The notes: a model not told the origin generated them from the letters alone. DNA of 64,000 bases from Clostridia bacterium (GCA_017465885.1 JAFTVG010000027.1:52799-116798); one strand, 5' to 3'; positions 38,944 to 58,089 are shown, counted from the first letter of the stretch. A program made the numbers and translations.

Positions 38944-40581
<1,638 letters not shown>

Positions 40582-40692
40582 TTACCTCCTTCATGCAAGT
40601 CAAACCGATTGAGAGGTGTGGTGCGGTATATAGTTTCCGCACCAACAGGATACTCCCAATCGATTTCAAAGTCCAGCGACTTTAGCCGGAAA

Positions 40693-40995
40693 TTACGAAA
40701 CATTTTTGTAACGAATCGAAATCTCCGCTTCGATCAGCCGTTTGATCAAGCCGTCAAAGCTCACGGTATTACAACGATTGAACTCACTTCGCACAGTGTA
40801 ATCCGAGCCGTCGATCACGTGGATACGTTCACGGATTAGCCTTTCTCCCGTCAGATAAAAAACGATCCCGCTAAGCTTCTTCACAGCAAAGCGAGGATCG
40901 TTTGTGCTATCATCGGGCGTTCTGAATTCAACGCTCTCCTTATGACTCCATACGGGATTGCATTCGTTTTCATAAACAACTTTTCTTTTCATCAA
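40693..40995 (-). CDS. hypothetical protein (100 aa) between relaxase and recombinase
   Basis: Clean ORF, 13 nt after the relaxase stop. No domain recognised. Confidence 0.55.
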   Translation of the reverse strand: MMKRKVVYENECNPVWSHKESVEFRTPDDSTNDPRFAVKKLSGIVFYLTGERLIRERIHVIDGSDYTVRSEFNRCNTVSFDGLIKRLIEAEISIRYKNVS

Positions 40996-41008
40996 ATTCC
41001 TCCTTTCA

Positions 41009-42001
41009 TTACATATACATTCCGTAACCCAAGCCGTTTGCCTGCTCGTATTCTTCTTTGGTACAGTAGCAAACGAATGCTTGAGGTGATATCTTGCGTC
41101 CGAGTATTTCTTCGAGACGCTCTTTTTCTTCCCAGTCCATTTCGGTAAGCTGTCTTGGCGTGTAGGCTTCTCTTGGCGGTACGGCAGATAGAACGTCGCC
41201 GATCATTCGGATCAGTCCCGTTGTTACCGTCACATTCATATCCTCATCGTGTTCGGGTGTTTTGTAGCTTCGGTACATCTCAGCAAGCGCTCCGTTACAA
41301 CCGCCCATCGCAAAGTAAAGCTCGATATTGGATTTGAGAAACCGCTCATCGAAGAGCTTGTTGTCACGGCAGGTATATCCTTCGGGTGTGGTGAAGGTCA
41401 TATACTTGTAATCCGAATACCACTTGACGCTGTATCCGTGTCGCTCCATACATTCGATGAAAGCCTCGGGTGTGGGACTGCATTCAAGCGCCCAATCAAG
41501 AAAGGCACACAGACGCTTTTTCCATTTGGGATATCTTCCGTAGGTGCATTTCTCTTCGGTAACCGAGAGACCGCGCTCACGGCACAGCTTGTTGGAGTAC
41601 TCCTTTATCTTCAGCATATCGTCTCTTGACTGATGAAACTTCTTTCCGTTTTCAAAGTTCACCGAATTGAAAACGATGTGATTGTGAATATGCGCCTCGT
41701 TGATGTGCGTTGAAACCACCGCCTGATAACCGCCGAAGTACATGGCAAGCTCCATTCCGATCTCGTGGGCAAGCTCAGGTGTCACGTTTTCTTCGGGAGC
41801 GAAGGACTGTATCACATGATAGTACTGTCTGCCGTCCTCCTTTCCGAAGCGCTCTTTGACAAACAGAAACTCATCGTGTGCAGACTCAGGCGCGCAGTTG
41901 ACACCGTCGATCAAATCTCGGTCGGTTGCTTCTGGTCGTGTGATATACGGAAAGATATTGTTCATCGGACAGCTCGAGGTAATGAATTTAACGATTGCCA
42001 T
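41009..42001 (-). CDS. relaxase/mobilisation nuclease (MobA/VirD2 family)
   Basis: 330 aa. N-terminal relaxase fold with the histidine triad HINEAHIHNHIVFNSVN. It overlaps the upstream mobC. Confidence 0.88.
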   Translation of the reverse strand: MAIVKFITSSCPMNNIFPYITRPEATDRDLIDGVNCAPESAHDEFLFVKERFGKEDGRQYYHVIQSFAPEENVTPELAHEIGMELAMYFGGYQAVVSTHINEAHIHNHIVFNSVNFENGKKFHQSRDDMLKIKEYSNKLCRERGLSVTEEKCTYGRYPKWKKRLCAFLDWALECSPTPEAFIECMERHGYSVKWYSDYKYMTFTTPEGYTCRDNKLFDERFLKSNIELYFAMGGCNGALAEMYRSYKTPEHDEDMNVTVTTGLIRMIGDVLSAVPPREAYTPRQLTEMDWEEKERLEEILGRKISPQAFVCYCTKEEYEQANGLGYGMYM

Positions 42002-42282
42002 ATCTTTTTCAGCTCCTCTCTTGTTTCGTTCAGGTCTACGGCGGGGATCATTCCGGCGTTAACGGCTCGGGTGATCTGATTGAGATTGTTACCGATACGC
42101 CGCAGTTCGTCGGCAAGCTCGTCCACGCCGTTGATGATAACGATGGGTTTATCCAGCGCCACATCACGAAGATAACGGCTAACGGTTCGGTAGGACGAAA
42201 GCGCTTTGTATTCGATCTGCTCTCGTTCTTCGGGCGAGACTCTCGTTCTGAGGATCTCGGTCTTGGGTTGTTTTGATTTCAT
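41962..42282 (-). CDS. mobC: plasmid mobilization relaxosome protein MobC
   Basis: The start is trimmed to ATG 42282 (MKSKQPKTE..., RBS AGGAGG). It has the hallmark ELRRIGNNLNQITRAVN and an RHH-like RVSPEEREQIEYKA. Confidence 0.88.
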   Translation of the reverse strand: MKSKQPKTEILRTRVSPEEREQIEYKALSSYRTVSRYLRDVALDKPIVIINGVDELADELRRIGNNLNQITRAVNAGMIPAVDLNETREELKKIWQSLNSLPRAVR

Positions 42283-42304
42283 AATAATTGAACCTCCTGT
42301 AATA

Positions 42305-42417
42305 GTGATATATCTCGCAAGCGAGATGTGATATGTTGCCTTGTGGCAACGTGATATAACGGCACAAGTGCCGCCATGATATTTCATTTGCAAGCAAATG
42401 AAGTTGCGCCTTCGGCG
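42305..42417 (+). other. motif-plus-hairpin array ending in a candidate oriT (IR + MOBQ-like nic core)
   Basis: GTGATAT occurs at 42305, 42328 and 42351 (23-nt period), and ATGATAT at 42376. Each copy is followed by a different perfect hairpin: ATCTCGC-AA-GCGAGAT, GTTGCC-TTGT-GGCAAC, CGGCAC-AA-GTGCCG, TTCATTTGC-AA-GCAAATGAA. GTTGCGCCTT (42403-42412) follows directly and resembles the AAGTGCGCCCT nic core. Confidence 0.55.
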
Positions 42418-42512
42418 TAGGGGTATGGGCATAGCCCGATGCCTTTGCCGGCTTGTCGTGGCACAAAGGCGAAACTCGCAATAAATGCCGACTGCATTAA
42501 AATGCTGTCGGC

Positions 42513-43595
42513 TTACCGAATGACAGAACCGTCAGTGACGCAAGGAACGCAAGGGTCGCAAGATTTGGCACTGCCGTTTTCTGCGTCACTTACGGCACTT
42601 GCGTCACTAAACGGAAGAACGTATCTAACTTCGAGAATTCTCTCGCCGTTGCTGCGGTGGCTGAGGAAATACACGCCGTGTTCTTCAAGGGTGTATCTCC
42701 ATTTGTTCATCTGCTGCTTGAGTGCCTTGGCAGATATCTGCTCTCCCGAGAAAGAACAATACCTTTCGGTAAACTCCGTATTACTTCCGACGAAGGAATT
42801 GATACTCTGAACAAAAGAAATCAGCTTGTCCATCTCGCTGGGAAGGAGCAATCTTGGATCGTCAAGGCTATCCGAGACACGCTCCCAAGTATGCGTGTCT
42901 TTTGAGAAGCGGATCTCAAGTTCGCGGTATTCAATATCCCGTCCCGTTGCAACGAGCGTGGCATTATCCTGGCTGCGCTTGCTCTTGTCAAGCACGAACA
43001 CCGCATCCACCGCGCCGCTGATGCCCGTTGTGCCGGACAGCTTGTTCAGCGGATCGCTGTCACCTTGCTTGCGAAGATGATGCACAAGCAGAAGCGTGAT
43101 GTTCAGCCCATCGGCAAGTGCTTTCAGTTTACGAAGCTCATCGTAGTCGTTGGCGTATGAGGTGTCTGCGGCGTAGCTTCGTATCACCTGAAAGGTATCA
43201 ATGGCAATGAATACCGTATCGGGATTCTCTTTTACGAATGAACGGATATCATCGCAAAGACCTTCGGCGAGCGTATGCGCCGTGGTTGCGAAGTACACCT
43301 CCTTGGGAACTTCATCGGTGATACTGTTCAGCCGTTCCTGCACACGGCGGAGCGTATCCTCGAGGCAGAGATACAACACCGATCCTTTGTGCGTTTGCAG
43401 ATTCCAGATCGGCTCTCCCTTTGCGATGCGAACGCACAGGTCAAGCACGAGCCACGATTTCCCGATCTTCGGTGCACCGCCGAGGATGCAGATCCCTTGC
43501 GGTATTAGCGTGTCGACACAAAACTTGGTCGGGACAAGTCTCATGTCCATGAGTGTTTCACCGTCTATGACGGTGAGTTTGTTTTTGTCTTTCAT
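42513..43595 (-). CDS. RepA-like AAA ATPase (AAA_25 / DnaB-like P-loop)
   Basis: The start is trimmed to ATG 43595 (MKDKNKLTV..., RBS AAAGGAG). Walker A GGAPKIGKSW, Walker B-like VFIAIDTF, and LLLVHHLRKQG, typical of the RepA/AAA_25 proteins of mobile elements. Confidence 0.8.
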   Translation of the reverse strand: MKDKNKLTVIDGETLMDMRLVPTKFCVDTLIPQGICILGGAPKIGKSWLVLDLCVRIAKGEPIWNLQTHKGSVLYLCLEDTLRRVQERLNSITDEVPKEVYFATTAHTLAEGLCDDIRSFVKENPDTVFIAIDTFQVIRSYAADTSYANDYDELRKLKALADGLNITLLLVHHLRKQGDSDPLNKLSGTTGISGAVDAVFVLDKSKRSQDNATLVATGRDIEYRELEIRFSKDTHTWERVSDSLDDPRLLLPSEMDKLISFVQSINSFVGSNTEFTERYCSFSGEQISAKALKQQMNKWRYTLEEHGVYFLSHRSNGERILEVRYVLPFSDASAVSDAENGSAKSCDPCVPCVTDGSVIR

Positions 43596-43870
43596 TGAAG
43601 ACTCCTTTCCGGGCTTAGCCCAAATATTTTTTGCAAGAGAAAAAGCTCCCGCCGATGTTGGCGAGAGCAATTTGACTTGCGGAGAGTTTCCTCTCTATTA
43701 CATACCCGACATGAAAGTGCCCAAAATGTTCCTGAGAGCAAAAAAATTTCCAAAAAAATCCCCTTGAAGTTTTTATGCATCAAAGGGATAGTTGTGAATT
43801 AGTTTATTCTGTCTTATTAAAATTATAATCTACGAAAACGCCGCCCGCAAAACACAGGCGGCATAAGGGA

Positions 43871-48414: not shown

Positions 48415-49440
48415 CTATGCCCCTAACAAACTCTGATCGAACGCAAACAGAGCCTCATTGATTTCAAAAATATTGTAGTTGCCCTTACTGATAAAGTATT
48501 CGATGATAATATCGAACTTATTGCTATGCGATAATGCGAACCCTGCCTTACGGAGCATATCCTCGGTTTCTGCGAGTGAAAGCTCCAAGGAAATCGCAAA
48601 CGCAAGCGCGGTGGGTTTGCTCGGCTTATAATGAATGTCACTACGGATTTTGGAGAACAGCTTGCGGTCAATGTTTGCTTTCTTGTAGCACTCGGCGTCG
48701 GTCATACCCTTTTCGTCAATCTTACGCAGAAGCATTTGAGAAAAGCTCTCGTCGATCTGCTTCAGCTTCGCATCAAGATCGTCCTCTGCCAGCATAGCCT
48801 TGCAATCGCATATTTCAAGAAAGTCGTCATCCGATTTCTTTCGTCTTGTGCGCGGAGCCATTGACGGTAGCGCGTTCATACGAATACGCTCACGGCTGTA
48901 ATCAGTATGCTCGTCCACATAGTTATCATCGATATATTCGGCAATGTCCGAGAACAGCTTCTCGCTGATCTTATAGGCAGCCTTGTCGAATATGACGATA
49001 TAAACGGTCATTTCGTTTTCAAGAAGAAAGTTGCTGATAACGTCGATAGCAACTTTCAAGGCTTGATCCTTGGGGTATCCGTACACACCCGATGAGATAA
49101 GCGGGAAAGCCACGGTTTCACAGTTGTTCTCCTTAGCAAGAGCCAAAGATTCGCGGTAGCAGGATTCAAGTAACGCCTTTTCTCCGTGCTTGCCGTCATT
49201 GTAGATAGGACCGACGGTATGTATTACATGCTTGGCCGGCAAATTATAACCGCCCGTAATCTTCGCTTTGCCCGTCTTGCAACCGCCAAGTGTTCTGCAT
49301 TCGGCGAGCAGTCCCAAACCCGCGGCGCGGTGAATCGCACCGTCAACACCTCCGCCGCCCAATAGCGACTCGTTGGCAGCATTGACAATGGCATCCACCT
49401 TCATTTTTGTTATATCGTTTCTTACTATTTCAAGCGGCAT
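48415..49440 (-). CDS. macro domain (ADP-ribose-binding/hydrolase) protein fused to a C-terminal HTH-like domain
   Basis: 341 aa. N-terminal MacroD/YmdB-type motifs [26 protein letters not shown] and [13 protein letters not shown]-terminal [23 protein letters not shown]...[15 protein letters not shown] resembles an XRE-like HTH. Confidence 0.85.
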
Positions 49441-49453
49441 TGGTGTTCCTCCT

Positions 49454-50530
49454 TTAATTCAATTTGCTCTCCTCTTTTATAACACTGTATTTTTCAGTTA
49501 TATACTGTGCGATACTATCGTAATCGCAAAATAGCGTTTTCTTGTTTATGCCAATCTTATCTAACTCTTTCAAAATGGCTGCTTTATTTTTAATGCGCAA
49601 TTCTATGTTTTGAAAATATAGGTGCTGTTTAGCTAACACTCTGAAGTTGTAGACGGGTTCAATATAAGTCAAATATCCTTGATATAGGAATAATCCCTGC
49701 TGATTTCTACCACGTTCAAATTTCATAATAGGCTGATATAACATATTGGGCAAAAATGTTATAGAGTGAATTGGTTCTGTATATGAGAGAGCTTTTTTGA
49801 AAAATACAAACTGCAAAGTAAGATAAAAATATAAGTCTTCATCGCAAATCTCTAACGGAAACTTCTTGACATCTTCAAAAGCATCTTGCAAATATGCAAT
49901 ACATTCCCATACATCGAACTTTTTGCGCTTTAGTTTTTTATAAAAGACTTGTTCTTTATCATCAAATGGCGAAGAAAAGTAAAACAGATAACTACTAATC
50001 AATTTTTCCATCAAAAATGAAAATGTATTGGGATGCTCTTTTTTGAACTGCTTAAATAACGGAACGAGCAACTCCAACTCGTTGATTGTATTAGCAAATA
50101 CGCACTCAATCAAATTTTCATTTGGGTATCTATGTATCAAATTAGTAACATCAATAGATTCGTCAGATCCTATATAAACGGCACCATCATCATCTTGCTT
50201 GCCGAGGCAAGCGAAATACAGAGCTGTTAATGGTGATGTTGATACATCTAAAAGATTTGTTGGCACTCCGTGATGCTGGGCAAAAGCAATAAAGTCTATC
50301 TTATCTTCGTTGAGTTTGTGGGCGGTTTCCTTATAAAACTCATCAATCATCTTCATAAACGGATACGGCTCGTTTGAGTTCCACCTAAACTCATACGGTC
50401 TAAGTGCAGACGATTGTCTTGACGGGAAAACATCTCCCTCTCCACGATAATACGAAACATTTTCAAACTTGTTTATATATCGTATATACTTTGAAAGACT
50501 ATCTATTTCTATTGTCTTTGTTTTTAACAT
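49454..50530 (-). CDS. FRG domain-containing protein
   Basis: 358 aa. YYRGEGDVF supplies the (F/Y)RG motif. [26 protein letters not shown] matches the conserved core of the FRG domain as I recall it. Very AT-rich. Confidence 0.75.
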
Positions 50531-50595: not shown

Positions 50596-51288
50596 TTATA
50601 GAATTGTTCGTCCAAGCGTTTCCAATTTCACATCAAGCTCTTTAATAGCACTACATACTGCACCGTTCAATTTTTTTAATTCGTGATCTACGGTAGAGAA
50701 ATATTCAATTATTTCCTTTTTGGTAGGACACTCAATATCGACATTATATAATTTATCGTGTAGTGTTTCGAATTCTTCTGCTAAACTTTCTGCATCATAA
50801 GATAGTTTCTTTTTACAGTATTCGTAACCATCAAAGGGCAACAATTCATTAAATGTACTTTGCATAATGAAGGAGTTAACCCAATTTGCTCTGGAGCCTA
50901 CGTCGTAAATGAAATCAAACAACTCCGTCGTATCATCATATTTAGTAAAGTTCTTATGTAAAAGTTCGCTGTAAAACTGTATGTATTCACTCAATTTGGA
51001 TTTTAATTCTTCCAAATATGCCTTTTGAGATTTCAAGTTCGAAGTGCAGCCCTGCTTAATGCCCGAAACCAAACATATAATTAAGCCTGTTATCAATCCT
51101 GCAAAAATATTAGCACATATTGATGACCAAAAAGCCTCACCAATATTGTTCAAGTAAACGGAAACCAATAGCGCAATTATAAAAAGTGCCGTAATTATTA
51201 AAGCAATCCACAAATGAGGATAACTAACATATAACAGCAGTTTTCTTTTTGCGCTTTTTAGAAACTTTTTTATTATGTACTTATCCAT
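50596..51288 (-). CDS. 2-TM membrane protein with helical cytoplasmic domain (paralogous architecture C)
   Basis: 230 aa. Basic N-terminus, TM1 WIALIITALFIIALLVSVYL, a short loop, TM2 ICANIFAGLITGLIICLVSG, then ~140 aa of predicted helices. Confidence 0.7.
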   Translation of the reverse strand: MDKYIIKKFLKSAKRKLLLYVSYPHLWIALIITALFIIALLVSVYLNNIGEAFWSSICANIFAGLITGLIICLVSGIKQGCTSNLKSQKAYLEELKSKLSEYIQFYSELLHKNFTKYDDTTELFDFIYDVGSRANWVNSFIMQSTFNELLPFDGYEYCKKKLSYDAESLAEEFETLHDKLYNVDIECPTKKEIIEYFSTVDHELKKLNGAVCSAIKELDVKLETLGRTIL

Positions 51289-51308
51289 TCTCCATCCTCA
51301 CTGCTTTT

Positions 51309-51962
51309 TTAGAAAAAATGTTTTCCCAGAAGCATTAACTGATCTTCACGTTCACGATACAACTCTTGCATTTTGTCCGCAAGTGGCAATAACTCCGTAT
51401 GAATATCAAGTATAGTTGATTCGATTAGATTCGTTTCATTCGAATTATATAGGCTTTCCCTGTAATTGTTTAGATTATCTCTATCGACAGGATCGTATCC
51501 TTTCTCAGGAAGTATGTCATAGAGTTCTATCGGTAGTTGATTTCTTGCCAATTCAAGTTCATCAATCCATAGATATACATTCTCTCTGTCCTCAAAAATA
51601 TCCCGCTTGCTGCCATATAGAGCCTTGAGTTTATAGCAATTGGCAATATTAGTGATGTTTCTAATAACATCCAGCACATCTTTAAGCTGCTTATACTCTT
51701 TTTGGAGTTTGGCAACTTTATTGTTTCTAATATTTGACAAAAAGTAGAACACCAAACCAGTAAAACAACCACAACTTGTCGAAACCAATGCGCCTGAAGT
51801 CCAATCGGAATAATCATAAATGAGAAAAGATAAAAACAGCAAAAGTGATGCAATCACAAATATGATAATTGCCCACCAAAAAGGAGATAGCCTAAATAAT
51901 TGAGTACGCAATTCTCGATTACGATATCGTATAATTCGTTGTACTGTTTTATCTTTTCTCAT
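51309..51962 (-). CDS. 2-TM membrane protein with helical cytoplasmic domain (paralogous architecture B)
   Basis: 217 aa. Basic N-terminus, TM1 FWWAIIIFVIASLLLFLSFLIY, a short loop, TM2 ALVSTSCGCFTGLVFYFLSN, then ~120 aa of predicted helices. Confidence 0.7.
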   Translation of the reverse strand: MRKDKTVQRIIRYRNRELRTQLFRLSPFWWAIIIFVIASLLLFLSFLIYDYSDWTSGALVSTSCGCFTGLVFYFLSNIRNNKVAKLQKEYKQLKDVLDVIRNITNIANCYKLKALYGSKRDIFEDRENVYLWIDELELARNQLPIELYDILPEKGYDPVDRDNLNNYRESLYNSNETNLIESTILDIHTELLPLADKMQELYREREDQLMLLGKHFF

Positions 51963-52026
51963 AAAAACCTCGCATTGATTGGAATCATAATTCTAAGTAA
52001 CACTAAAATGTCTATTGAATGTTCCT

Positions 52027-52848
52027 TTAGCTATTATCAATCGCATTCAATTTTTCGTTCAAATCCGCATAATAGCGCATTCCTAAACCCTGTAAATTTT
52101 CTTTTTGTAAATACAGCTTCAAAATGTTATCACTAATTTCCGGCTCGGACTTGGGGATCATATTCATATAAAACAAAAAGAGCGCTAATGTGTTTTCTCC
52201 CGCTTCGGTATATACAATCCCTTCAAAATCATCTAATTGCAACTTCATCTTTTTTCCAATGTTTAGTATGATTGTTCTATTATTTATTACAATCATATCA
52301 AATTGTTCTTGTTTAGGAACTTTATTTGAAACATAGAAAGTAGTGATATTGGATATTAGAGTTCTTATATCAGCGTATGTTTTGTCTGCAAAAATAAATG
52401 TTGGGATTCTTTTGACGCATTCTTTTCCTTCCTCCGAGCGTTCAAATCCAGTTCTTATCCTAATGAGTTTTTTTACACTTTGAACCTGTTTTAAACCTCT
52501 TTCAATTTCATTATTATTCGACAAATCCGGTTTAACTTCAATTGCATAATCTACTCCATCTGCAAAGATAATGGATGGTTTTCCTCTTTCACCATCCAAA
52601 GTGTACGGATGAGAGGGGTTAATAACAATACAATCTATAGAATTACTTCTGTTTCCAAAACTGTCAATAATATTGCCTTTAACAATTCTAAATGGAAAAG
52701 GGAAAAATTTTTCCAAGAAGTTATGGATTATATCTTCACGTCGGTCAGATACTTCTTGTGGGGTACCTTCTCCCTCAATACTTGCTTTTGCAAACGAAGT
52801 TGCAATCTCTTGTGATTCTATTTTGAGTATTTCCAGTAGCTTGCTCAT
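52027..52848 (-). CDS. PD-(D/E)xK-like nuclease-fold protein (DUF6602-like)
   Basis: 273 aa. A candidate catalytic pattern is D in NSIDCIVINP followed ~30 aa later by AIEVKPD (ExK). The ATG overlaps the stop of the MmeI-family gene (ATGA at 52845-52848). Confidence 0.65.
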   Translation of the reverse strand: MSKLLEILKIESQEIATSFAKASIEGEGTPQEVSDRREDIIHNFLEKFFPFPFRIVKGNIIDSFGNRSNSIDCIVINPSHPYTLDGERGKPSIIFADGVDYAIEVKPDLSNNNEIERGLKQVQSVKKLIRIRTGFERSEEGKECVKRIPTFIFADKTYADIRTLISNITTFYVSNKVPKQEQFDMIVINNRTIILNIGKKMKLQLDDFEGIVYTEAGENTLALFLFYMNMIPKSEPEISDNILKLYLQKENLQGLGMRYYADLNEKLNAIDNS

Positions 52849-55619
52849 TGTTTATCCTCCATTAACTTTTGATACATCTTCATCAGCTCCGCAACACAAG
52901 TGCTTTCCGTCATAGTCTTCACGTCGAAGCCATACGCCTGCATTACGGCGCGGTCATTTGCTTGATGTGCCTTGCGGAGTTCGGGTGGCATAGCAACTTC
53001 ATCATAAAGGTCTGCCAAAGAACAATCGGGATAGAGTGCGCGTGCGTCAAGAATAGCCAGTGCTGTTTCCTCAATCTTCTTTTTCTGTTCGGCGGTAGGA
53101 TTGCACCAAGGAAAGTTGTTATACACAACTGAACCACTATATCTATATCTCATCTCTAAGCGACCGGCAACAGTTCTCATCCAAGCATTGTGAACATTAG
53201 ATGTTAACACACCAAAATGATATAACGTTGCGCCACAAATAATTGCACACGCGTCAGAGGCAATCACCTCTGGCTCCATAAATCCTATTGGTATATATTT
53301 TCTGTTTTCAGATGAATGTCTTGGTATGATAAGATAGTTTTCGTCTGTTTGCGGTGTTGAAAAGAAAAGATATGGTTTCTCGGCTGATTTACGTGTTGGC
53401 TCAGCAGAGCTATTCTCTCTAAACTGTTTAATCGCAAGCAACCTTTTAGCAATTTCCTTGTTTTTTCTATACAGTGCAGGAGATACGCCTTTTAACCACA
53501 AACAATATCTTTCAATATCGTTATTTAAAAAATCTTTTGCTCCTACATAACGTCTAATGCACGGTGCTACAGCTGGATCATTAGCGACAAGCGCATCTCT
53601 TTCTTCTTTGGAGAGTATGAAATTTCCATCATCTGTAGGTTGGTTTCCTTTTGTCATCTTAGGAACATCGCAAATCGGCTTACTTCTACTTGTTACAAAA
53701 ACAGTTGGCGCATTTATTAAATAGCCGTTGATATTATCAACGAATTGAAAATGATCGCCATCGAACAATTTTTTCTTTCCCAAATTTTCTTCAACACTAA
53801 ATCCAACGATTACACAGTGAACATGGGCTTTAAGGTTAGCTTCACTGTCCCAACGAAAAGTTCTATAAGCAAAGTTTATATGAATGCCATAATGAGTAAA
53901 CAAAGTTTCCCAAAGAGGTGATACCTGCTCACCTTGTGTAATACTGTTGGTTGATACTAATGCTACTCTTACATTGGTTCCTTGTATCAATTTTGCTGCT
54001 TTATGATACCAAGCACCCACGTAGTCAATACTATTGGATAATTTAATTTTTCCAAAAATTGCTACTGCGTCATCCTTTTGTTCTTTTGTCATCATAGATG
54101 CACCAACGAAAGGCGGATTACCCATAATGTAATTCAGCTTGTCCTTGGGTACAACAGTTTCCCAATCGGTACGAAGAGCGTTGCCTTCTACAATGTTGGC
54201 ATAAGATTTCAAGGGAAGAAAATCGAGGGACATATTTACAATGTCCTCTGTCTCTTTGAGCATCTGGCTTTCTGCAATCCAAAGCGCAGTTTTCGCAACG
54301 GTTACGGCAAAGTCATTGATCTCAATGCCATAAAATTGCCCGATTGATACTTTAATAAAGCCTTCGAAGCCAAGCAAAATCTGCCCTTGGTTTATAATTT
54401 CAAGTGCTTCGTTCTCCAAACGGCGCAAGGAGATATAAGTTTCGGTTAAGAAGTTACCGGAACCACAGGCGGGATCAAAGAATGTAAGCTTAGACAGCTT
54501 TTCACGGAATGCTTCTGCTTTATCGTTGCGAATCTTGGGGACTTTCAATGCCTTGATCTCTGCAAGCTCCTCGCGGAGTTCATCCAGGAACAGCGGATCA
54601 ATAACCTTATGGATGTTCTCAATAGAGGTATAGTGCATACCGCCGCTACGACGGGTTTCGGGGTTCAAGGTGCTTTCAAATACTGCGCCGAAGATGGTGG
54701 GGCTGATCTGCGACCAATCAAAATCTTCACTTGCATTGTGCAGGAGCAGGTCAACAATATCCTGCGTCATGTTGGGAATTTCAATATTTTCGTCAGCAAA
54801 CAAGCCACCATTGACGTAAGGAAATGCTGCCAAAGCGGCATCTATATAAGGATCACGCTCTTCGGTTTTGGTATCGAGCACACGGAAAAGGTCAATGAGT
54901 GCACGGCGCACATCTTTCACGTTAAAGCTCTTTATGTAATTATGGAATTTCAGATGACCGCCGAAAATGCCTGCGTCCTCTGCATAAAGGCAGAATACAA
55001 GACGGACACAAAGCATATTCAAGCTGCGCAGAGTTTCCTCACTGTCGGGATGAATGTACTGCTTCAAAATTGCATCGTACAACTTGCCGACAAGCTCACC
55101 GGCTTTGATGGAGATCTGTTCTTCACGGTGCAGAAGCTCGCTCTTTTCTTCCACAAGAAACTGCAGGCGATAATACTCTTTACCGAGGTCCTTCAGCAAA
55201 ATACTTTCCGGCTCACCGGTGGGCTTCTCCATGTCGTAAATAAGGAACTCTTCAAAATTACAGGTGATGATCCAACGTGGACGCTGCGAATAAGGCAGTG
55301 CCGCCGAATATCTCTGCGCTTGTTGAAAGGGATTGAGCAAAGTACCATCCGATTGACGAATGGGGCTACGCAAATTGAGTCCCTTCTTTTTCTGCTCAAT
55401 GAGCACATGGGTAGAAGGGATATGACCGTCAATAAAGCTTGTGTGGTCCAGCTTTACACGTTCCTCAAACAATATAAACTTTTCGGGTTCCGCAACGCCT
55501 AAAACGTCACGGGCAAGAGAAAGCCAAAAAGATTGGCTGTCGCTTTTTTCGTCACCACGGTCTTTCCAATATTCCGCAAAAGCCTTTGCGGCTCTTTTTC
55601 TATCTGTATCTGTCATCAT
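52845..55619 (-). CDS. MmeI-family type IIL restriction-modification enzyme (fused nuclease-methyltransferase-TRD)
   Basis: 924 aa from ATG 55619 (RBS AGGAGA). The track start at 55637 is a TTG. The N-terminus has FIDGHIPSTHVLIEQKK (D-x10-ExK, as in the MmeI nuclease). AdoMet motif I is FFDPACGSGNFL. Catalytic motif IV is IMGNPPFVG. The size and order match MmeI-like enzymes. Confidence 0.85.
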   Translation of the reverse strand: MMTDTDRKRAAKAFAEYWKDRGDEKSDSQSFWLSLARDVLGVAEPEKFILFEERVKLDHTSFIDGHIPSTHVLIEQKKKGLNLRSPIRQSDGTLLNPFQQAQRYSAALPYSQRPRWIITCNFEEFLIYDMEKPTGEPESILLKDLGKEYYRLQFLVEEKSELLHREEQISIKAGELVGKLYDAILKQYIHPDSEETLRSLNMLCVRLVFCLYAEDAGIFGGHLKFHNYIKSFNVKDVRRALIDLFRVLDTKTEERDPYIDAALAAFPYVNGGLFADENIEIPNMTQDIVDLLLHNASEDFDWSQISPTIFGAVFESTLNPETRRSGGMHYTSIENIHKVIDPLFLDELREELAEIKALKVPKIRNDKAEAFREKLSKLTFFDPACGSGNFLTETYISLRRLENEALEIINQGQILLGFEGFIKVSIGQFYGIEINDFAVTVAKTALWIAESQMLKETEDIVNMSLDFLPLKSYANIVEGNALRTDWETVVPKDKLNYIMGNPPFVGASMMTKEQKDDAVAIFGKIKLSNSIDYVGAWYHKAAKLIQGTNVRVALVSTNSITQGEQVSPLWETLFTHYGIHINFAYRTFRWDSEANLKAHVHCVIVGFSVEENLGKKKLFDGDHFQFVDNINGYLINAPTVFVTSRSKPICDVPKMTKGNQPTDDGNFILSKEERDALVANDPAVAPCIRRYVGAKDFLNNDIERYCLWLKGVSPALYRKNKEIAKRLLAIKQFRENSSAEPTRKSAEKPYLFFSTPQTDENYLIIPRHSSENRKYIPIGFMEPEVIASDACAIICGATLYHFGVLTSNVHNAWMRTVAGRLEMRYRYSGSVVYNNFPWCNPTAEQKKKIEETALAILDARALYPDCSLADLYDEVAMPPELRKAHQANDRAVMQAYGFDVKTMTESTCVAELMKMYQKLMEDKQ

Positions 55620-55633
55620 AATATCTCCTATAA

Positions 55634-56581
55634 TCAAAATGCGCTTTCTTCTTCAACGAAGCCGGTAATGTGTCTAAGTTGAGAAAACACGGGGACTTTC
55701 TTCTCGTACTTAACTTCTTTTCTAAAATATATTTTAGAACGAAATTCTTCAATTCTATCGGACACATCGTCAAACTTCCTTTGATATACAGTGGTCCACT
55801 CACTACCGTCTTTTTGAGTAGTTTCGGTTGCAAAAAAGAAATCATTGAGATCCAAAACCTTTTTGCAACATACACCAAAACTGCCTTTTCCGTCCTTTAT
55901 CATATTAAAATGAAATACTTCTAATTTGATTTTATTTAGATATTCTTGGAGCTTGGAATAAATCGACTCAAAAGCAATGAGGCGGATCTTTTTGTTGTCG
56001 AAAAGGAAATCTAAATTGCCATACGCATTTGATAAATCCTCCAAATCGATTTTTGATGCGGCAATATACATATCCATATATTTCGTAAATATATTGCTAT
56101 AGTTTTCAATACGTTCATTATAAATTCGAATCAAGATTGATTCGATATCATCACTCTCGGAGAAGGACATTGGTTCATTTTCTTGCATCCAAGCAATGTA
56201 GGCATCACGTTTTTTATGAACCGCCTCGACCCCTAATGCTTTAGCAGTTTCGCCGTCACATTTTTCCCACAGTTTGTTATGCTGTTCTTCTGATATACAA
56301 TCCAATATCAATACTTGAGGCTCATCCAATTTCAGAAATTTAATTTTTCTGAGTTGCACATAAACTTTATATGCAGCTCTTAAAAAATCTTCCATTGCCC
56401 TCCTGCGTTCTGCAAAGTATTCTATCAATGACATAATAAATCCAAGCAACGCGCTACCGAAGATTGCCATTGAAATATCGTACATGAGCTTAATGCAAAA
56501 ACAATTTGCAATTATAGCACAGATTAACGAAACAGCAGAAATTCCGGCGGTGATAAAAGTTACCCATTTTTTTGCTTTCAT
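55634..56581 (-). CDS. 2-TM membrane protein with long helical cytoplasmic domain (paralogous architecture A)
   Basis: The start is trimmed to ATG 56581 (MKAKKWVTF...). TM1 FITAGISAVSLICAIIANCFCI, a short loop, TM2 MAIFGSALLGFIMSLIEYF, then ~250 aa. Very AT-rich. Confidence 0.7.
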   Translation of the reverse strand: MKAKKWVTFITAGISAVSLICAIIANCFCIKLMYDISMAIFGSALLGFIMSLIEYFAERRRAMEDFLRAAYKVYVQLRKIKFLKLDEPQVLILDCISEEQHNKLWEKCDGETAKALGVEAVHKKRDAYIAWMQENEPMSFSESDDIESILIRIYNERIENYSNIFTKYMDMYIAASKIDLEDLSNAYGNLDFLFDNKKIRLIAFESIYSKLQEYLNKIKLEVFHFNMIKDGKGSFGVCCKKVLDLNDFFFATETTQKDGSEWTTVYQRKFDDVSDRIEEFRSKIYFRKEVKYEKKVPVFSQLRHITGFVEEESAF

Positions 56582-56594
56582 ACTCTGAATCCTT

Positions 56595-56801
56595 TCATTT
56601 AGCAGATTTGTCAGCTGCTTTGCCGCTCTTAATCCATGCGTCAACTTCGCTTGTCTTAAACTTCCAACTACGCCCCACCTTGCTTGCGGGCATCTTCTTT
56701 TCATTGATCCAAGTGAGCAGGGTGTCACGGCTTACACCAAGATACTCACACATTTCTTTGGTGGAACACCAACGTTCGGGCATATTTTTTAAATCTCGCA
56801 T
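56595..56801 (-). CDS. excisionase-family / HTH_17-type DNA-binding protein
   Basis: 68 aa. WCSTKEMCEYLGVSRDTLLTWINEKKMPASKVGRSWKFKTSEVDAWI is the MerR-like excisionase HTH. RBS GGAGAGG. It is the first gene inside the right end of the element. Confidence 0.8.
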   Translation of the reverse strand: MRDLKNMPERWCSTKEMCEYLGVSRDTLLTWINEKKMPASKVGRSWKFKTSEVDAWIKSGKAADKSAK

Positions 56802-56837: not shown

Positions 56838-56866
56838 ATTATATCATATTTTCTTGCTTTTTTCAA
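56838..56866 (-). promoter_or_regulatory. candidate promoter (TTGAAA-17-TGaTATAAT) of the HTH-2TM-MmeI operon
   Basis: Minus strand: TTGAAA (complement of 56861-56866) - 17 nt - TATAAT (complement of 56838-56843) with an upstream TGA, ~37 nt before ATG 56801. Confidence 0.65.
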
Positions 56867-57023
56867 CGGGTTATTGCGGAATTGTGCGGAGTTAAATCGA
56901 AATTATTTGTAAAATGCCGAATTTGATTTGACTATTGACATTTTTTAAAACAAAAAAGCCATAGTACAGAACTCAAATAAATTCTATACTATGGCTTTTC
57001 GCTTCTCTCAATCGGTTGTTTTA

Positions 57024-57160: not shown

Positions 57161-57415
57161 TCAAGAGACGAAAATGGTGATCTCTGTGCCTTGTTCATTT
57201 TTTTTCTGCACCTCGATCAGCTTCCATTCGGGATGGGTTGATGCATATTTCCTTGTTTTCCGAAAGAGAATGCGCAGCTGCTTATAGGACAGGCTTACGC
57301 CCTCTTTTTTCAACCTTTTTGAAAGAAGAAGGGCAGACGGTCCGTTGAGCAAAAGAGCGTTTGGCAGGCGCAGACGTAGGCGTTTTTTGCCGTTTTCGCG
57401 TAGGATGATCTGCAT
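57161..57415 (-). CDS. small basic protein, paralogous to the C-terminal domain of the upstream XRE regulator
   Basis: 84 aa, 3 nt after the XRE stop. QIILRENGKKRLRLRLPNALL and KLIEVQ...EITIFV align with RIIVNSADGDRIRVNLPLQLL and DLVEVE...VIQIRV of the neighbour. Confidence 0.6.
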   Translation of the reverse strand: MQIILRENGKKRLRLRLPNALLLNGPSALLLSKRLKKEGVSLSYKQLRILFRKTRKYASTHPEWKLIEVQKKNEQGTEITIFVS

Positions 57416-57418
57416 CGC

Positions 57419-57919
57419 TCACTCCACCCGGATTTGGATAACGTCCCCGTCTGAGGACTCCACCTCCACCAGATCTCCGATAACGCCCTGCGCGAGGATC
57501 GCCATAACCTGCTCCCAGTTAACCTGCTCCAGCGCCGAATTTCCCGAGATACGGGGTGGCTCCAGCCCGCAATCCATTGCCGTTTTGAGTAGCTGAAGGG
57601 GAAGATTGACCCTTATTCGATCCCCGTCGGCGGAGTTCACGATGATCCGCAATACGCGATCCCCCGTGTTTTGGCGCTCTTCCTCGGGAAGCATCCTTAC
57701 GGCAGCCTCCTGCGCCTGCTTTCCGCTGAGCAGCTCGTCCGTACTGACGCCAAGAACCTTTGAAAGCTGTGGCAACAGGCTGATATCGGGGCAGGTCTGA
57801 TCGTTTTCCCATTTGCTGACCGCTTGACCACTGACGTTCAACCGATCTGCCAGCTCCTCTTGGGTAAGTCCCTTGCTTTTTCGCAGTTCTGCGATTCTTT
57901 TTCCGATCGTTTCGTTCAT
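57419..57919 (-). CDS. XRE-family HTH regulator with C-terminal domain
   Basis: The start is trimmed to ATG 57919 (MNETIGKRIAELRKSKGLTQEELADRLNVSGQAVSKWENDQ, RBS AAAGGAGA). Confidence 0.85.
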   Translation of the reverse strand: MNETIGKRIAELRKSKGLTQEELADRLNVSGQAVSKWENDQTCPDISLLPQLSKVLGVSTDELLSGKQAQEAAVRMLPEEERQNTGDRVLRIIVNSADGDRIRVNLPLQLLKTAMDCGLEPPRISGNSALEQVNWEQVMAILAQGVIGDLVEVESSDGDVIQIRVE

Positions 57920-58089
57920 TTCCCTTGTCTCCTTTCGTTTGGTAGATCCATTATACCTGCTTTTTTTGAAAAATGGAATAGATTGTCGGTTGGATATGGG
58001 GGATTTTGTCCAACCAAAGTGGGAATATTCACTCAACCGTCGGTTGGACGAGCAATCTTACGGCAATGAAAGCGGTAAAGATCTTTTCT

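Follow-up and report, generated by a model that had tools for sequence, protein, structure and literature searches.

Two-helix membrane proteins recurring beside restriction genes: a compact defence gene string on a mobilizable element of a Clostridia bacterium

In the Ronin system, a toxic effector encoded within or beside a restriction-modification (RM) operon is restrained by the RM proteins until phage anti-restriction proteins free it; its effector RonA, a membrane-acting protein of 61 amino acids (aa) with one transmembrane (TM) helix, is in all cases linked with hsdS and hsdM, without hsdR. The same concept underlies PrrC, an effector guarded by the RM enzyme EcoprrI, and both Ronin and PrrC have so far been described in E. 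coli. In the MmeI family, a single polypeptide combines an N-terminal nuclease, a helical spacer, a gamma-class N6-adenine methyltransferase, a target-recognition domain and a C-terminal domain, and these enzymes cut about 20/18 nucleotides (nt) from an asymmetric site, methylate only one strand and work alone. Here, a gene string is described in a 64,000-nt stretch of DNA from a Clostridia bacterium (GCA_017465885.1, JAFTVG010000027.1:52799-116798), in which the gene for a 315-aa protein with two membrane helices (TM315) directly precedes the gene for an MmeI-family enzyme, followed by the gene for a DUF6602 nuclease. The whole stretch is referred to as the window, all positions are given in its coordinates, and the gene string is read on the minus strand.

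The likeness of TM315 to the effectors of Ronin and PrrC is conceptual only, an effector gene beside RM genes. TM315 is set apart from RonA by its architecture, being about 310 aa long and having a large cytoplasmic domain besides its two TM helices, and its partners are hsdR, MmeI, Type_ISP_C and Eco57I-like genes, while it also occurs alone. A protein of 315 aa with two TM helices and partners including MmeI and hsdR was therefore not assigned to Ronin. The reading preferred here, to which a probability of slightly more than one half (about 0.55) is given, is that separable defence modules are stacked on a mobilizable element, with TM315 as an RM-linked back-up effector.

The TM315 family and its restriction neighbours

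TM315 (55634-56581, minus strand) was modelled with AlphaFold2 (AF2) at a mean confidence (pLDDT) of 89, and in the model a two-helix membrane hairpin at the N-terminus is followed by a helical cytoplasmic domain, with a small beta-sheet at the C-terminus. Conservation within the family is strongest in the second membrane helix and the residues just after it, and the ratio of nonsynonymous to synonymous substitution rates (dN/dS) is 0.09. TM315 had no match in Pfam, NCBIfam, PADLOC or PHROGs, nor in the plasmid collection by tblastn, and a Foldseek comparison of its model with PDB and BFVD returned nothing below E 0.06, with TM-scores of 0.1-0.3. A literature search for an RM-linked family with two TM helices and of the size of TM315 yielded nothing beyond Ronin, and this RM-adjacent family appears to be undescribed so far. 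Membership in the SLATT and S_4TM/2TM effector families was considered for TM315 (22 members) and for TM217 (24 members), a protein with two TM helices encoded downstream of DUF6602, and was rejected: the Pfam matches were scattered and sub-threshold with none to SLATT, and PADLOC gave none.

The neighbourhoods of the family were compared in 80 metagenome loci with relatives 40-45% identical and in closer relatives, a sample that is not random; loci carrying homologues, taken from GTDB species representatives or metagenome contigs, bear L-numbers. At least six unrelated kinds of restriction gene were found to have a TM315-family gene as their immediate neighbour. The family gene lies 15-47 nt 5' of an MmeI gene (the window, L035, L053 and L146) or of the gene for a Type_ISP_C enzyme (L050), and relatives at 57% and 53% identity also precede MmeI genes. 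In L050, where TM315 is 85% identical, the genes for HTH_17 and TM315 stand before the gene for a 1074-aa single-chain enzyme with Type_ISP_C/Eco57I domains. In 28 loci the family gene closes a type I hsdM-hsdS-hsdR operon, 12-16 nt 3' of hsdR, and the three HsdR lineages concerned are 27-37% identical to each other, while their TM315-family partners are 57-66% identical. In L097, the family gene overlaps the end of a gene for a 1594-aa Eco57I-like enzyme by 4 nt.

Genes of other kinds are also found next to the family. In 16 metagenome loci it lies 18 nt 5' of Abi_2, and the remaining neighbours include Schlafen/AlbA_2, PLD nuclease, PLD-helicase-DUF3427 and VanZ-NTP_transf_5 genes. When the family was grouped at 90% identity, 9 of the 21 clusters were RM-adjacent, 5 were beside other defence-type genes and 7 were beside neither. 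To judge from these neighbourhoods, the association between TM315 and RM genes is recurrent and not obligatory. The tight link between a membrane protein with two TM helices and MmeI, proposed in the original prediction, is thus upheld in part, and in a broader form than first put forward: TM315 does recur beside many kinds of restriction gene, yet stand-alone copies exist and near-identical MmeI genes occur without it.

That the gene is found again and again in operon position next to very different restriction enzymes suggests that TM315 could be a back-up effector freed when restriction is blocked. By analogy with RonA and HsdMS in Ronin and with PrrC and EcoprrI, TM315 would probably act at the membrane as an abortive-infection effector, silenced by or signalled from the adjoining restriction enzyme. 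The wider proposal, in which a widespread family guards several RM classes (type I, MmeI-type, Type_ISP_C and Eco57I-like), kills or arrests the cell once phage anti-restriction proteins block the adjoining enzyme, and is joined by a second, swappable suicide effector in the slot after MmeI described below, is considered doubtful.

As a separate observation, where Abi_2 comes after the TM315-family gene, it is followed by a gene for a KAP-family NTPase (L070-L084; for example, L073:6970-7980 and L080:6438-8312).

The MmeI-family enzyme, the DUF6602 nuclease and a variable slot

The MmeI-family gene (52845-55619, minus strand) encodes 924 aa, and by its sequence the protein is a full member of the MmeI family, a complete type IIL/IIG RM enzyme. 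Pfam placed each of the five MmeI domains (MmeI_N, _hel, _Mtase, _TRD and _C) above cut-off, the PADLOC profile REase_MTase_IIG matched with 1167 bits, and residues 8-919 aligned end to end with the MmeI structure 5HR4 (E 6.6e-206). In the translation, the nuclease motif D-x10-E-x-K reads FIDGHIPSTHVLIEQKK, and the catalytic motifs comprise that of the nuclease (FIDGHIPSTHVLIEQK), the S-adenosylmethionine (SAM)-binding motif DPACGSGNF (FFDPACGSGNFL) and GNPPF. The enzyme thus shares with MmeI (PDB 5HR4) the five-domain architecture and the D-x10-ExK, SAM and NPPF motifs, and differs from it in that the window gene shares its operon with other defence genes.

Relatives of the enzyme at 88, 84 and 84% identity stand alone, amid nrdD/nrdG, Fic, or prmA/ychF genes. 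These solo relatives, together with what is established for the family, support a self-sufficient enzyme. They also bear on the original prediction, in which the adjacency was to be regarded as accidental if the closest MmeI relatives lacked such neighbours; none of the three has DUF6602 or TM315 as a neighbour, and on that condition the idea of a nuclease dedicated to MmeI fails.

The first 360 aa of the enzyme are 97-100% identical between the window and L146, L150 and L151, and in L035 the identity is 95% and 81% over the two parts of this region. The target-recognition domain (aa 621-840), in contrast, is just 46-54% identical to that of the window in L146, L150 and L151, a pattern that looks like specificity-domain swapping within one enzyme lineage. 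The L035 sub-lineage, with a swapped specificity domain, is 75% identical to the window enzyme overall. Since the target-recognition domain differs from those of close relatives, the specificity of MmeI here is probably different. Upstream of MmeI, replacing or joining TM315, a Fic protein with an N-terminal HTH_17-like segment is encoded in three loci (L146:1634-2530, L151:2581-3486 and L046:3588-4499).

With a small HTH_17-type protein 5' of an MmeI/PglX-like methyltransferase, the locus resembles MADS (PADLOC mad1 8e-10, mad2 7e-17); however, the window enzyme has its own nuclease domain. MADS was rejected because the NCBIfam equivalogs scored below their cut-offs (MAD1 67.1 against 80, MAD2 14.2 against 720), and PADLOC found no further MAD genes. 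BREX, in which the PglX methyltransferase goes together with PglZ, BrxC and further genes, was rejected as well, with PglX models at 16-20 bits against cut-offs of 400-900 and no BREX domains in the neighbours with Pfam and PADLOC. Taken by itself, the defence island belongs to a known kind.

The DUF6602 gene (52027-52848, minus strand) encodes 273 aa matching Pfam DUF6602 (PF20247) with 71.4 bits against a cut-off of 27, and also the PADLOC profiles PD_DExK and NucC. The motif IDCIVINP...AIEVKPD is found in its translation. The AF2 model (pLDDT 85) was compared with PDB by Foldseek, and the 14 best matches were all NucC (best match E 8e-13, TM-score 0.64/0.72), with only NucC among the significant PDB neighbours. 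In a profile alignment, I71-D72...E104-V-K106 of DUF6602 aligns with the NucC active-site motif, ID-x31-EVK as against IDx30EAK, and D72, E104 and K106 are invariant in 16 DUF6602 homologues. The protein is accordingly modelled with the NucC fold, a PD-(D/E)xK restriction-endonuclease fold, and is a predicted nuclease. In this respect the original prediction proved right, and it was also right that a membrane protein and a second nuclease lie outside the textbook type IIL layout.

The likeness to NucC extends to fold and active site, while sequence identity is just 13-21%. Of the NucC residues for the cyclic tri-AMP pocket (R53, Y81 and T226) and the gate-loop latch (H136 and Y141), the profile alignment covers R53 and Y81, which fall opposite an invariant proline (P52) and an invariant histidine (H80) and make activation by cyclic tri-AMP doubtful, and the DUF6602 family has an invariant N-terminal motif of its own (EG-x-GTPQE-xx-DRRE). 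NucC, the cA3-activated endonuclease of CBASS and type III CRISPR, is encoded with a CD-NTase (CBASS) or a type III CRISPR cyclase, whereas Pfam and PADLOC scans of the island genes revealed neither a cyclase nor a CRISPR neighbour. The claim made for the modelled protein is thus confined to the shared NucC fold and does not extend to NucC-type regulation or genomic context.

An anti-phage gene with the DUF6602 domain, the cassette 'Damona' of the chromosomal integron of Vibrio cholerae, has been reported (bioRxiv 10.1101/2024.07.02.601686). The window protein is likened to it at the level of domains, by the Pfam domain and by secondary matches to Cas PD_DExK and a CBASS small endonuclease, and a mobile, cassette-like distribution is common to both. 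It differs in that the window gene travels with a partner with two TM helices, TM217 (51309-51962, minus strand, 217 aa), in L001 and L035-L044. DUF6602 had no PHROGs family and no match in the plasmid collection (tblastn).

In a census of one genome per species (GTDB representatives), with relatives 38-93% identical, none of the 34 DUF6602 loci had an MmeI relative within up to 10 kb, and the neighbours of DUF6602 varied across the loci. Among ten genes beside distant DUF6602 homologues that were scanned with Pfam, no known partner recurred. TM217 was rejected as a general partner, since its profile matched just L001 among the 34 loci. L001, a contig of a metagenome-assembled genome with a 93%-identical DUF6602, shares with the window just positions 51234-52883. 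Its region L001:9965-11610 holds an intact DUF6602-TM217 pair, with 35 nt from the 3' end of MmeI on one side and about 55 nt from the 5' end of TM230 (the gene after TM217 in the window) on the other, and the pair sits in a different mobile context with PcfJ-like and Rep ORF2/G2P genes. The remnants of MmeI and TM230 beside the intact pair indicate that MmeI was lost there and the pair kept.

The position after MmeI is a slot with differing occupants, which start 2-32 nt 3' of MmeI: DUF6602 and TM217 in the window and L035-L044, HEPN_Swt1, T5orf172 and a protein with two TM helices in L146 (6293-8679), DUF6650 and TIR_2 in L150 (6287-7889), and a TM protein and Mrr_cat in L151 (6270-7509). 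Because these differing occupants follow near-identical MmeI 5' halves, DUF6602-TM217 is taken as one of several occupants of a variable slot. Beyond the slot, L150 and L151 carry the FRG and Macro genes at 86-95% identity, and in related elements the two stay together at 86-96% identity. The five-gene order of the window (HTH_17-TM315-MmeI-DUF6602-TM217) is kept only in closely related metagenome contigs, and in L035 a 3-nt gap takes the place of the overlap between MmeI and DUF6602. The suggestion that the second nuclease is dedicated to MmeI was thus not borne out, given the census, the L001 pair without MmeI and the other nucleases in the slot. DUF6602 and the two paralogous proteins with two TM helices (TM217 and TM230) would instead form an independent module of the 'Damona' kind in the variable slot, no subunit of MmeI, probably degrading DNA upon some trigger.

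Two further proteins were noticed in these loci. A protein of about 240 aa without Pfam match is encoded directly upstream of, or overlapping, the DUF6602 homologues in seven species representatives (L010, L011, L014, L016, L017, L019 and L032), and may be a partner of DUF6602 in that subclade. Downstream (3') of the Type_ISP_C enzyme in L050 (9347-10129) lies a gene for an unannotated 260-aa protein with an N-terminal hydrophobic helix, which echoes the small TM proteins of other slot variants.

Gene junctions and competing explanations

Several observations weigh against stacked, separable modules with TM315 as an RM-linked effector. Of the 21 TM315 clusters, 7 have no defence neighbour; one lies between ptsI and a phosphatase gene, and another is found in a mobilizable element without RM. 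Single clusters at 90% identity include members both with and without RM, and an MmeI with a 98-100% identical 5' half occurs without TM315. Defence genes cluster in islands anyway, the TM315 locus sample is non-random, and the fold has no informative match by Foldseek in PDB and BFVD. In addition, the five-gene order is kept in the L035-L040 sub-lineage although MmeI is 75% identical there, an ATGA overlap and one promoter would also be expected of a true multi-subunit system, and all the alternative slot occupants are effector-type, which could mean functional pairing with MmeI and not a neutral hotspot.

The next most probable explanation, possible and clearly less favoured, is that TM315 is autonomous cargo of mobile elements (superinfection exclusion or stand-alone abortive infection) and that its RM adjacency reflects general clustering of defence genes and operon compaction. 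The copies that stand alone within a mobilizable element or amid housekeeping genes, the single 90% cluster with members with and without RM, the adjacency to Abi_2, Schlafen, PLD and VanZ-NTP_transf_5 genes, and the uncoupling of TM315 identity from MmeI identity are all in its favour. However, autonomous cargo does not readily account for a family that is co-oriented with, and 12-16 nt from or overlapping, restriction genes of at least six unrelated kinds, including three HsdR lineages less than 37% identical, that is consistently last in hsdM-hsdS-hsdR operons, and of which two 57%-identical alleles both precede near-identical MmeI genes.

It is unlikely that MmeI serves as a constant sensor whose slot always holds a swappable abortive effector, unleashed when restriction fails or is inhibited. 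Four differing effector-type occupants 2-32 nt after near-identical MmeI genes would fit such a sensor, as would the small TM proteins that accompany three of the four and the domain set of the slot, since NucC-like DNase, HEPN RNase, TIR NADase and Mrr DNase domains match the effector repertoire known from CBASS, Thoeris and type III CRISPR. The solo MmeI relatives in housekeeping contexts and the DUF6602 homologues, nearly always without an RM neighbour, speak against a sensor, and no signalling enzyme was found in the locus with Pfam and PADLOC scans. A mobile element with a recombination hotspot that has conserved genes on its two sides (MmeI and FRG-Macro) predicts the same pattern of occupants.

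The junctions of the gene string are close. The HTH_17 gene (56595-56801, minus strand) encodes a 68-aa excisionase-family DNA-binding protein with matches to Pfam HTH_17 (4e-17), the TIGR01764 excise domain (64.5 bits) and PHROG excisionase families. Its TGA stop ends at 56595, followed by a 13-nt spacer (AAGGATTCAGAGT) and the ATG of TM315 at 56581; the TGA stop of TM315 ends at 55634, followed by a 14-nt spacer with AGGAGA (TTATAGGAGATATT) and the ATG of MmeI at 55619. The MmeI stop and the DUF6602 start overlap as ATGA (52848-52845), with GGAGG 7 nt 5' of that ATG. Open reading frame calling stretches two of the frames to upstream GTG/TTG starts (364 and 930 aa), while the ATG starts are favoured by homologue alignments, in which TM315 relatives all start with MKAKKW and MmeI relatives have 918-928 aa. 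All coordinates, both spacer lengths, AGGAGA, the ATGA overlap and both nuclease motifs of the original prediction were reproduced on the minus strand.

A promoter-like site of the extended -10 type (56838-56866, minus strand) sits 5' of HTH_17, with TTGAAA, 17 nt, TATAAT and TG, 11 of 12 positions matching, and is a consensus match only. Just before it lies a terminator-like hairpin (56953-57000, minus strand) with a 20-bp stem and a T run, which ends the upstream XRE/orf84 unit, and no comparable terminator was seen inside the gene string. To the extent that sequence signals can tell, this is consistent with one transcription unit, with the promoter 5' of HTH_17 as the likely operon start, and that promoter would probably drive a tightly packed series of distinct defence modules. 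Bacterial operons often have short spacers and ATGA overlaps, which as ordinary features argue for co-expression only and not for functional dependence.

The same junctions speak for the view that TM315, MmeI and DUF6602 are the components of a single dedicated restriction system whose accessories gate, modify or back up MmeI. This view can point to genes on one strand with 13-14 nt spacers, ribosome-binding sites and an ATGA overlap, to a single strong promoter-like site without internal terminator, and to the five-gene order kept in L035-L040 at 75% MmeI identity. It is nevertheless improbable, since MmeI is not near DUF6602 in any of the 34 loci, both neighbours are missing beside the closest MmeI relatives, the genes upstream and downstream differ between MmeI genes with near-identical 5' halves, L001 keeps DUF6602-TM217 without MmeI, the ATGA overlap is lineage-specific (a 3-nt gap in L035), and TM315 at 85% identity pairs with Type_ISP_C, another enzyme family. 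In the preferred reading, MmeI is a complete, self-sufficient type IIL enzyme whose specificity domain is exchanged among relatives. The identities and folds of the genes, their spacing and the neighbourhoods compared are what is shown; co-transcription, functional independence of the modules and each mechanism put forward for TM315 and DUF6602 are inferred.

Equally improbable is a service to the element, with HTH_17 as excisionase or transfer regulator and TM315 as an establishment or exclusion factor delaying restriction after transfer, for which the excisionase matches of HTH_17 (TIGR01764 and PHROG families) and the position of HTH_17-TM315 after the element genes TnpV and DUF6809 in L035 and L050 can be cited, but against which stand TM315 relatives 3' of chromosomal-looking type I operons without HTH_17, an HTH_17 just 64-66% identical where TM315 is 85-87% identical, and the fusion of HTH_17 to Fic 5' of MmeI in L151 and L146.

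If TM315 is indeed wired to restriction enzymes, the idea of guarded RM would be extended beyond PrrC and Ronin so as to cover a large family of proteins from gut Firmicutes as well as type IIL/IIG enzymes made of a single polypeptide, and one membrane protein and one enzyme would make a simple testable pair. The variable slot after MmeI is in itself a natural experiment on the swapping of effectors. Should the genes instead be independent, the locus would be an ordinary, neatly packed defence island on a mobilizable element, and the sole practical lesson would be that tight operon coupling is no evidence of shared mechanism. The TM315 family is the part of the locus worth following up.

The carrier element and the genes after DUF6602

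The gene string lies in a low-GC block at about 38-57.5 kb of the window. At one end, a mobility module (38944-43670, minus strand) encodes a large serine recombinase with DUF4368, a relaxase, NikA/MobC and an AAA_25 protein; XRE and orf84 (57161-58036) are at the other end, and the whole is flanked by host rpsF/ssb and a cardiolipin-synthase gene. A low-GC block with serine recombinase, relaxase and NikA/MobC indicates an integrative mobilizable element of about 19 kb with defence cargo.

TM217 is followed by TM230 (50596-51288, minus strand), a protein of 230 aa that also has two TM helices and is remotely related to TM217 as its tandem paralogue (hhalign 93.9% probability, E 1.5e-7, 202 columns). 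The TM217/TM230 family is small, with 79 representative clusters and no annotation. Neither protein had a PHROGs family, and TM217 had no match in the plasmid collection (tblastn) and no relative in viral contigs. Homology of TM315 to TM217/TM230 was rejected, since hhalign gave 40% over the membrane hairpin only and pairwise BLAST gave E > 0.1. The dN/dS of TM217 was 0.11-0.13, and that of the three accessory genes was 0.09-0.14 between lineages, indicating purifying selection that mostly reflects the time spent in the shared arrangement.

After the variable slot come an FRG-domain gene (49454-50530, minus strand), which belongs to the PADLOC candidate system PDC-S15 and to the conserved backbone 3' of the slot, and a Macro-domain gene (48415-49440, minus strand; 341 aa), its conserved partner in related elements. 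The two form a conserved backbone pair and may be a module of their own. The Macro domain spans just aa 19-131 of the 341-aa protein, which is followed by a long uncharacterised tail, and ArsC often comes after the FRG-Macro pair.

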